Below, piece by piece: positions 1 through 3,000 of a stretch of 64,000 nucleotides of DNA; the first letter of the stretch is position 1, and each line of letters opens with the position of its first letter. The position numbers are program-made. The stretch lies in NCBI RefSeq assembly GCF_056712565.1, contig NZ_CM160072.1, one strand, 5' to 3'.

Positions 1-3000
1 GTAATATGCAAATAAGCAATTAATAATCCCGTTTACTCCTCCGGTCTTTTAAAATTCTCACCTTCATTCAGCTGGTTTATGTCCTTCATGTCTTCGTTCT
101 TGCACGGCAGATTTCTGCATCCAGGCGTGTTTTCGTTATGCGTTTTGCTCCCTTTACTCGCCAGCGCCACCACATCACATATCTCTTTTAGCTACGCCGC
201 CCGCCAGCGGATGCAAAACCGTGCGCGTTTATTAAAACAGTACCAAACCCATCTGAAAAAGCAGGCCAGCTATATTGTGGAAGGCAATGCCAAAAGCAGA
301 AGGGCGCTGCGCCAGCATAATCGGGAGCAGATAAAACAGCATCCAGAATGGTTTCCTGCGCCGCTCAAGGCGAGTGACAGACGCTGGCAGGCGTTGGTGG
401 AGAATAATCATTTCTTAAGCAGCGACCATCTACATAACATCACCGAAGTGGCGATTCACCGCCTGGAGCAGCAGCTAGGTAAGCCTTATATCTGGGGGGG
501 CACGCGGCCTGATAAAGGCTTCGACTGTAGCGGGTTGGTTTTTTATGCCTACAACAAGATCCTTGAGGCTAAGCTCCCGCGCACGGCCAATGAGATGTAC
601 CACTACCGTCGGGCAACGATTGTGGCGAATAACGACCTGCGCCGGGGAGATTTGCTGTTTTTCCATATCCACAGTCGTGAGATAGCCGACCATATGGGCG
701 TATATCTTGGAGACGGTCAGTTTATCGAGTCACCGCGCACCGGGGAAACCATTCGGGTAAGTCGGTTAGCCGAACCTTTCTGGCAGGACCATTTTTTAGG
801 CGCGCGACGGATTTTGACGGAAGAGACGATTTTGTAGGCCGGATAAGGCGTTCACGCCGCATCCGGCGGTTGTGCGCCGGTGTCTGATGCGACGCTACGC
901 GTCTTATCATGCCTACAAATCTGTGCATTTTTTGCGAGCCGCTTTCCCGATTTAACACAACATCATTGCCGACTTTTCCTTTTCTTCTTACCGTTGAGAA
1001 AAAGGAGTCGTTATGTCTGAATATCGTCGTTATTACATCAAGGGGGGAACCTGGTTTTTCACGGTAAATTTACAGAATCGTCGAAACCAACTTTTGACCA
1101 CCCAGTTTCAGACGCTCCGTAACGTTATTATTAAAGTTAAGCGAGACAGACCTTTTGAAATTAACGCTTGGGTAGTTTTGCCGGAGCATATGCATTGCAT
1201 ATGGACATTACCTGAAGGCGATGATGATTTTTCCTCGCGCTGGCGGGAAATTAAAAAGCAATTTACCCATGCTTGTGGATTGAAAAATATCTGGCAACCA
1301 CGTTTTTGGGAACATGCTATCCGCAATACCAAAGACTATCGCCATCATGTTGATTATATTTATATAAATCCAGTAAAACATGGTTGGGTAAAACAAGTGA
1401 GTGATTGGCCATTCTCAACGTTTCACCGCGATGTTGCGAAAGGGTTATATCCCATCGATTGGGCGGGAGACGTAACGGATTTTAGTGCTGGGGAGCGTAT
1501 CATTTTATAGCTGTGCGCCGATGCCTGATGCGACGCAGACGCGTCTTATCATGCCTACAAAACCGCGCTCACCCGTAGGCCGGATAAGGCGTTCACGCCG
1601 CATCCGGCGGTTGTGCACCGGTGCCTGATGCGACGCAGATGCGTCTTATCATGCCGACAAAACCGCACTCACCCGTAGGCCGGATAAGGCGTTCACGCCG
1701 CATCCGGCGGTTGTGCACCGGTGCCAGATGCGCCGCTACGCGTCTTATCATGCCGACAAAACCGCACTCACCCGTAGGCCGGATAAGGCGTTCACGCCGC
1801 ATCCGGCAATATGCACCGATGCCGGATGCCTACATCAACGCCCCCATTATCTTCAACTCCAGCTCATCCAGCACTTCGTTATACGACAGCACATGCAGCC
1901 CTGGTGCAAACAACCTTGCGTAGCGCGCCAGCAAAGGGCGCAGCTGCGGCGGCACCAGCAGCACCGGATCTTTCCCCGCCGCTTTCATCTGCTCCTTCAC
2001 CTGCGGCATCGTGATCTGAAACTGGTTGAGCATATTCGGGTCCACCGGCACGCTATCGAGCATCACTTTGCCGGCCTGTTGCGCCTGATTCACCACGTTG
2101 GTCAGCAGATTTTCCAGCTCATTATTCAGCGTATACACCGTCAGCTCCTGCTTGCGAACGAACGGATGGGTAATGCTGCGCCGCAGCACCAGGCGCACAT
2201 CGGCCGTCAGCAGAATATGATCTTTAGTCACCGCACTACTGGCGACCAACACGGTGGCGATGGTGACGATATCGCGCAGGGAAACGCTTTCAGTCAGTAG
2301 TGTGCGGTACACTTTCAGCAACTGGCTGTAATTGAGCGCCGCGCTCAAATCTTCCGCCAGTCGCGGTGCCATCGACGACAAACGGTTATGCAGCTGAGTA
2401 ATATCGTCATAGTTAAACAAATCAGGAATATAGCTGCGCACAATCTTATTCACATGGGTGGCAATTACGCTGGCGCTGTCGATCACCTGATACCCCATAT
2501 TCAGCGCCTTCGCTTTCTGCGCGGGCTGAATCCAGGTGACCGGCATCCCGTACGCCGGGTCGTTCCCCAGCACGCCGTCTATCTCGCCGTAGGTTTCGCT
2601 GGAGGGCAGGGCCATCAGTTTATCCGCCGGAATATCCGCTTCATCAGCCTTAATGCCGTTGATGAAAATAGCGTACTGGCTGGGCTTGAGGCGGAAGTTT
2701 TCCCGAATACGGATCTCCGGCAGCAGCACGCCGTTGCCGTCGGAAATCACCTGACGTACGCCGCGAATACGCTGGGTGAGCGGGTTGCCCTGCGCTTTAT
2801 CCACCAGCGCCACCAGTTTGTAGCCGAGGCTTAAACTGATAGGTTCGATCAGCGGAATAGTTTCCCAACTGACCTGTTGCTCGCTGGTTTCTGTCATCGT
2901 ACGGGTTAGCGTTTCGAGGCTTTTCTCTTCCGCCTCCGCCGCTTGCGGGCGCTTGCTCATCCGCCAGCCGGTAAAACCAAGCAGGGCGCTGAACATCAGG

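Follow-up and report, generated by a model that had tools for sequence, protein, structure and literature searches.

About 1% of the E. coli genome consists of REPs. The described system closest to the locus analysed here is the E. coli REPtron, in which yafM (rayT or tnpA_REP) is flanked on both sides by BIME-2 and for which RAYT-driven rolling-circle amplification of BIMEs was proposed (Nunvar 2010 BMC Genomics 11:44, PMC2817692). In a later study, tnpA_REP was found in 74 of 110 genomes, always between yafL and fhiA, with hicAB replacing the locus in B1 and precise excision in B2 strains (Ton-Hoang 2012 NAR 40:3596, PMC3333891). That study reported array polymorphism from independent Sanger-era genomes, showed in vitro cleavage and recombination of BIMEs by the K-12 enzyme, which can also assemble tandem BIMEs, and proposed amplification models, yet strains carrying the gene and strains lacking it differed only slightly in their REPs/BIMEs. 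The sites defined for RayT are iREP-I (TGCC|TGAT), iREP-II (CC|TAC) and a looser C|T in the linker (Ton-Hoang 2012, PMC3333891); RayT_Ec cleaves at C|T and is intolerant of mutations in GTAG (Corneloup 2021). Reports that cognate REP single strands are cleaved and transferred come from in vitro work and concern the K-12 protein only (Ton-Hoang 2012, PMC3333891; Corneloup 2021).

The locus, its polymorphism and the hypothesis of amplification by RayT are already published (Nunvar 2010, PMC2817692; Ton-Hoang 2012, PMC3333891), and the locus described here differs from the published REPtron in nothing essential. Gene and chromosomal position agree, as do the single BIME to the left and the varying number to the right. 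APEC O1, a named example in the earlier work (Ton-Hoang 2012, PMC3333891), has flanks 99.9% identical to those studied here and the same three-unit span, and both the hicAB replacement and the precise rayT deletion were reproduced in the present survey. What is added is a survey of 5,426 genomes, a dissection of the repeat units and a rayT-null control. With a probability of about 80%, we consider this to be the canonical E. coli REPtron in its ST95/UTI89/APEC O1 form, with a right-hand array that is a polymorphic tandem repeat and whose recent changes are most simply accounted for by generic misalignment.

The rayT gene and its flanking repeats

The window, the whole 64-kb stretch of DNA that was analysed, carries rayT between yafL and an flhA/lfhA pseudogene (Table 1). 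The RayT translation scored 177.9 bits against the NCBIfam model NF047646 'REP-associated tyrosine transposase' (cutoff 80), placing it among the RAYT/TnpA_REP proteins, and matched PDB 4ER8 ('TnpArep') over residues 1-164 with E=6e-114. It differs from the crystallised K-12 TnpA_REP by seven substitutions, retains the HUH motif as H59-M60-H61 and the catalytic Y115, the residue changed in the catalytic mutant of TnpA_Ec (Y115F; Corneloup 2021), and is identical to RefSeq WP_000006241.1. Pfam assigned no family to RayT at the default threshold; at E<=10 the sole match was Y1_Tnp, at 18.1 bits and below the GA of 23. The NCBIfam IS200 model gave 15.2 bits, under its cutoff of 55.

Members of the IS200/IS605 group (TnpA Y1 HUH, e.g. 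IS608) share with this locus the HUH/Y1 catalytic core, single-strand chemistry and the arrangement of a gene between same-strand subterminal hairpins with a 5' guide-like tetranucleotide. The locus differs from them in that RayT falls below the cutoffs of IS200-type models and in that rayT is single-copy, fixed and non-mobile. A median of one place per genome was found for rayT, always beside flhA/yafL, in 3,388/5,426 genomes. The gene is a vertically inherited, domesticated, single-copy Y1/HUH transposase gene that is itself not mobile.

Table 1. Positions of genes and repeats at the rayT locus, numbered from the first nucleotide of the window
Feature	Position	Strand	Details
yafL (left neighbour)	79-837	+	NlpC/P60, C40 peptidase; PF00877, 9.5e-33; RefSeq annotation
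Upstream Y REP	834-867	+	GTAG head; matches the Y REPs of units 1-3 at 100% identity
Upstream linker	868-881		14 nt
Upstream Z2-type iREP	882-916	+	Ends CTAC
rayT (yafM / tnpA_REP)	1013-1510	+	Intact; 165-aa HUH Y1 REP-associated tyrosine transposase
BIME-2 unit 1	1512-1611	+	Z2 iREP 1523-1558, linker 1559-1574, Y REP 1575-1608
BIME-2 unit 2	1612-1711	+	Z2 iREP 1623-1658, linker, Y REP 1675-1708
BIME-2 unit 3	1712-1810	+	Z2 iREP 1723-1757, linker, Y REP 1774-1807
REP remnant	1821-1833	+	13 nt, internally deleted; GCCGGATGC+CTAC
flhA/lfhA (fhiA) pseudogene (right neighbour)	1830-3569	-	N-terminally truncated Flag-2 remnant; FHIPEP, profile positions 99-655 only; RefSeq 'missing N-terminus'

A preliminary description had identified a rayT REPtron with REPs on both sides and about three BIME units of about 100 bp downstream, and both statements were confirmed. 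A Y REP, a 14-nt linker and a Z2 iREP (834-916) form a single left BIME-2 unit that was invariant in every strain examined; these upstream REPs lie outside the interval 1013-1835 to which the preliminary description was attached, yet fit it. The downstream side (1512-1833) was resolved into three units, each made of Z2 iREP, linker and Y REP (101, 100 and 99 bp), and then a REP remnant of 13 nt. Tandem Repeats Finder reported it at 1512-1829 with a period of 100, 3.2 copies, 92% matches and a score of 531, and found nothing comparable elsewhere in the 64 kb. In rayT-deleted strains a full Z2 iREP occupies the place of the remnant.

The repeats belong to the BIME-2 family (Bachellier/Gilson/Hofnung), with which they share inverted, alternating Y and Z2 palindromic units, short linkers, a tandem arrangement and a copy number that is polymorphic between strains. 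The linkers are 14 and 16 nt long, which by inspection leaves no space for the BIME-1 L motif, and there is no long L linker with an IHF site. The locus departs from the family in the stem of its Z2 units, where every copy bears a locus-specific CATGCC variant confined, within the window, to this locus; for the canonical CAGGCC form there were zero occurrences in the 64-kb window. REP core words occurred four to five times in the window, against zero expected from dinucleotide-preserving shuffles. A second departure is that the heads of the Z2 iREPs in units 2 and 3 are mutated. All four Y REPs are identical and have the GTAG head. The Z2 iREP of unit 1 carries both cleavage sites (iREP-I GCC|TGAT and iREP-II CC|TAC), that of unit 2 ends in CGAC, giving a bottom-strand head of GTCG and not GTAG, and that of unit 3 reads GCCAGATG followed by CGAC, again with a GTCG head, such that both canonical iREP cleavage sites are gone.

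The stop codons of both neighbouring genes sit within the outermost GTAG/CTAC tetranucleotides. For yafL, the TAG (835-837) is part of the GTAG that heads the upstream Y REP; for flhA/lfhA, the complement of the TAG (1830-1832) is included in the CTAC of the REP remnant.

Two segments of the locus matched the Rfam model naRNA4 (RF02564, from REP325) above its gathering threshold of 59.5 bits. One match (837-913; 70.5 bits) falls on the upstream Y REP, linker and Z2 iREP, and the other (1578-1655; 66.5 bits) runs from the Y REP of unit 1 into the Z2 iREP of unit 2, so that both are Y-linker-Z2 segments. naRNA4 is a transcribed and processed RNA that acts with HU in nucleoid condensation. The model is, however, essentially a BIME-2 unit, and the match probably marks the repeat family rather than RNA production here. 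A simple scan detected no promoter-like or terminator-like sites in 800-1900, and the DNA fold of the array was modestly better than that of shuffled sequences (z = -2.5).

Unit number across E. coli and in the ST95-type lineage

The distribution of the locus was determined with a flank-only, repeat-free query that joined the 3' ends of rayT and flhA, 400 nt from each, and was run on 5,426 complete E. coli genomes. The two ends were adjacent in 3,388 of them (62%), consistent with the 74/110 found previously (Ton-Hoang 2012, PMC3333891) in a survey about 50-fold smaller. The remaining approximately 38% had no rayT at this site owing to hicAB replacement or deletion. These rayT-less sites took three forms, namely hicAB, a deletion between the flanking direct Z2 iREPs, and other GC-rich repeats. 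The deletion seen in Nissle and CFT073 leaves a yafL-flhA intergenic region of 293 bp.

Array lengths were examined in an evenly spaced sample of 38 records with rayT, with the number of units calculated from the span, and the counts were confirmed by reading the sequence of 16 loci. Two units was the mode (23/38 records, among them K-12, ST131 and others). One unit was found in four of the 38, for example in O157:H7, three units in seven, four units in three and five units in a single record. Samples spread in this way follow the composition of the database, in which K-12, ST131 and O157 are over-represented. On the upstream side, the loci that were read always had a single Y/Z2 pair and an interval of 181-182 bp. 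The comparison of unit number across strains, which the preliminary description had proposed, therefore returned one to five units and not an identical length in all strains. Whole units of 99-101 bp are gained or lost in register in this downstream tandem repeat. Elsewhere in the genome, K-12 has arrays that are annotated with 7-11 REPs.

The 60 best matches to the flanks of the window (99.9-100% identity) were ST95-type B2 strains, including UTI89, APEC O1, S88, IHE3034 and NU14, and the same three-unit span was found in 57 of them. The array had been called expanded. Its three units do exceed the species mode of two, but this is a nearly fixed state of the lineage, one unit above the mode, and not an unusual expansion. 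The array is stable within clonal lineages and polymorphic across the species.

Exceptions were ATCC 11775, in which unit 3 is missing, and SF-173, in which unit 2 is missing; in both, the RayT protein is identical to that of the window, the flanks are 99.9% identical and the loss of the unit is in register. Loss of single units in near-identical backgrounds was thus observed directly. The crossovers of both deletions lie within identical stretches of about 58 nt that include the Y REP, as slippage or unequal exchange would predict. These stretches also hold the linker C|T sites, and mapping of the junctions therefore does not separate slippage or exchange from the action of RayT. Among related B2 strains that likewise encode the identical RayT protein, AF16 has four units and JA0266 has five. 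Three of the JA0266 units are 99 bp long and perfectly identical to one another, which points to a recent gain.

Change at a control array and in strains without rayT

The BIME-2 array between gltP and yjcO, which is about 4 Mb from rayT in K-12, was used as a control. In a K-12 mutation-accumulation line, five of the six tandem REPINs at gltP-yjcO were lost, and the local rate was estimated at about 1.5e-8 per REPIN per generation (Park et al. 2021). The 58 genomes sampled here fell into at least 10 length classes at this array (spans 877-1628), and the length differed even among genomes with 100% identical flanks. The control array is more variable than the one adjacent to rayT, and the latter is therefore not especially dynamic.

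The control array was also examined in strains without rayT. In the group of Nissle, ATCC 25922 and CFT073, the absence of the gene was evident from the 293-bp yafL-flhA interval in 60/60 rows and from the sequence; strain A8 of the Nissle-type group gave a single matching place, to the flhA half of the flank query only. Among rayT-deleted strains with 100% identical flanks, the gltP-yjcO span was 1627 in Nissle, 1514 in SCU-101, 1174 in CU39ES-1 and 1060 in strain 9. The differences amount to 1, 2, 4 or 5 whole units of 113 bp and are in register by sequence, which demonstrates that whole-unit change occurs without RayT. At the rayT-adjacent array itself, a strain with the nonsense allele rayT W53* has four units. 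Unit variants at the rayT locus were found in 2/60 ST95 rows versus 0/60 rows of the Nissle/CFT073 type, a comparison that involves few events and many rows that are resequenced copies of the same strains.

Two further candidates were set aside. EcWJ, which has no rayT and one unit fewer, was not relied on; its record is a chromosomal fragment labelled as a plasmid, and it could represent an independent deletion of rayT. The B1 strains carrying hicAB were rejected as a rayT-null control at gltP-yjcO, where a large group with 98.3% identity is essentially without the array (span 877).

Collapse or expansion of 100-bp tandem repeats during assembly could in principle generate copy-number differences of this kind. 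Assemblies of the same strain do disagree at gltP-yjcO (1401 versus 1627 for ATCC 25922 and 1400 versus 1627 for Nissle 1917), and the EcWJ variant is on the oddly labelled 'plasmid' record mentioned above. Some of the same-strain differences at gltP-yjcO may reflect assembly collapse or stock variation. At the rayT locus, however, lengths were reproducible within lineages, namely in 57 of the best 60 ST95 matches, in all sampled ST131 and K-12 rows and in 60/60 rayT-deleted rows. Substitutions specific to a lineage and mosaic junctions, neither of which collapse would produce, are also present in the units, and the same polymorphism was present in the independent Sanger-era genomes (Ton-Hoang 2012, PMC3333891). 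The consistency of length within lineages and the substitutions specific to individual units argue that most of the variation at the rayT locus is real, and we regard artefact as a very improbable general explanation.

Origin of the unit changes

The preliminary description suggested that the array may reflect ongoing amplification of REPs by RayT, with copy-number variation between strains as the sign of it. By this route RayT would bind GTAG-headed REP hairpins on single-stranded DNA, cut at C|T and add BIME units through strand transfer or a rolling-circle-like step, and the three-unit array would be a product of that continuing activity. Several observations fit. The gene is intact here with the HUH motif and Y115. 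REPtron BIMEs are cut and recombined in vitro by the K-12 enzyme, and this chemistry is the basis of published models of tandem amplification. The identical RayT protein is found with 2, 3, 4 or 5 units, including the recent gain in JA0266, and in every unit of the window the Y REP is intact, with its GTAG, and one or more linker C|T sites remain. REPINs are more numerous in RAYT-containing genomes (Park et al. 2021).

Other evidence points away from ongoing amplification by RayT. Similar copy-number change was found at gltP-yjcO in rayT-deleted strains, and at an array that is more variable than the one beside rayT; the four-unit array next to the W53* allele is a further case. The array is nearly fixed in ST95, in 57 of the best 60 matches. 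In JA0266, the three identical units that arose by recent duplication contain neither the iREP-I nor the iREP-II site, and their Z2 REPs have GTCG heads, a loss of GTAG that is not tolerated by the enzyme. Amplification of these units must therefore have used the linker C|T sites or not involved RayT. We know of no demonstration of REP spread or of RayT activity in vivo. A mobilome study detected no BIME intermediates in circular form. Taken with the observations that fit, this makes it unlikely that the three-unit array is a product of ongoing RayT activity.

Copy-number variation alone does not discriminate the action of RayT from ordinary tandem-repeat instability, and any tandem repeat with 100-bp units would be expected to vary in this way. 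As the same variation is found at other arrays and in strains without rayT, it lends no support by itself to RayT activity or to the proposal that RayT is still amplifying the array. The simplest account of the recent unit changes is generic misalignment of a tandem repeat, in which replication slippage or unequal homologous exchange would occur within the stretches of about 58 nt that are identical between units and include the Y REP. Cleavage and strand transfer by RayT at C|T may have contributed alongside such misalignment, above all where units were gained and when REPs were first seeded.

A division of this kind, with losses independent of RayT and gains needing RayT through the linker C|T beside an intact GTAG REP, was also considered. 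All gltP-yjcO variants in the rayT-deleted lineage are shorter than the mode, and the clear gains, recognised by neighbouring units of identical sequence, all came from rayT+ backgrounds (JA0266 and UID2309220031), both in a small sample with no correction for phylogeny. These observations also fit ongoing RayT activity. In the M7424/UID2309220031 lineage, the amplified units have Y REPs with GTGG heads and Z2 elements with an intact CTAC. Each amplified unit thus appears, from its motifs, to keep exactly one RayT-competent REP, which would be the Y REP in ST95-type arrays and the Z2 in those of the M7424 type. We nevertheless consider a need for RayT in gains doubtful.

The REPtron locus is a textbook place to study the spread of REPs, and the window adds no new biology to it. 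What is useful is the contrast between gains and losses in rayT+ and rayT-null clades. If RayT were indeed needed for gains, public genomes would already hold an in vivo signature of RayT activity.

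The rayT deletion junction and the limits of the REPs

In the B2 strains from which rayT has been deleted (Nissle and CU39ES-1), the left Z2 iREP was found fused to a right-hand Z2 iREP, and the fusion falls within approximately 20 nt common to both iREPs (GCTACGCGTCTTATCATGCC), leaving the sequence ...CATGCC|GAC. This junction is compatible with either a short-homology deletion or cleavage at C|T in the loop, but not with two canonical cuts at the RayT cleavage site iREP-II (CC|TAC). In the window, there is no spacer between the outermost REPs and the coding regions on either side. 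The GTAG/CTAC head tetranucleotides of these REPs contain the stop codons of both neighbours, namely the TAG of yafL (835–837) and the TAG of the lfhA remnant (1830–1832, minus strand).

Apparent genes within the REP array

Open reading frames traverse the REP array (within window positions 1485–1923), and in several strains the array carries RefSeq 'hypothetical proteins' that lengthen or shorten with the BIME unit count. The repeats seem to have given rise to spurious annotations here. Two Y-linker-Z2 segments, 837–913 and 1578–1655 (plus strand), matched the naRNA4 model (RF02564) with scores of 66.5 and 70.5 bits, respectively (Rfam gathering threshold 59.5), while the third equivalent segment, 1678–1755, scored below that threshold. 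Because the model is in essence a BIME-2 unit, the matches probably stem from membership of this repeat family and not from a dedicated RNA gene.

Features in the window and at comparison loci (L) in other strains
Feature	Position	Strand	Details
ORF across REP array	1593–1802	-	
ORF across REP array	1621–1923	+	
ORFs/'hypothetical proteins' across REP array	L009 2406–2849; L010 2494–2751; L022 682–840		
rayT deletion interval	L013 (Nissle) 433–725; L019 (CU39ES-1) 633–925		Compared with window 882–916, 1723–1757
Serine recombinase/resolvase gene, AT-rich island	17820–18359	-	PF00239, 1e-33
Iteron-like direct repeats, set 1, AT-rich island	19197–19295		ACCTAGGAAATGAGTTCC x4
Iteron-like direct repeats, set 2, AT-rich island	about 19390–19526		CCCCCACAGAATTCTGTTA x5
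HTH-domain ORF, AT-rich island	21176–21829		

Other repeats and an AT-rich island

In some rayT-less strains (GPT24-02 and MS14385; L015/L016), the yafL-flhA interval lacks both REPs and hicAB. Its place is taken by another type of palindromic repeat, rich in GC (CCCTCGCCCCTTTGGGGAGAGGGCCGGGGTGAGGGG...), which occurs in versions of 116 or 180 bp. The sole further REP in the 64-kb window is a single Y REP (12669–12702), preceded by a degenerate palindrome, GCCGGATGCGATGTTAGAGCATCTCTTCCGGCC (region 12600–12705).

In the control gltP-yjcO array, independent assemblies of one strain differed by two 113-bp BIME units (database matches H365/H373/H395/H401/H409 and H361/H407), with spans of 1401 versus 1627 for ATCC 25922 and 1400 versus 1627 for Nissle 1917. 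These discrepancies reflect either true instability between stocks or collapse of the repeats during assembly.

Downstream of tRNA-Thr(CGT) (16538–16613) lies an AT-rich island (region 16538–22000), possibly representing the origin from which an integrated element replicates.
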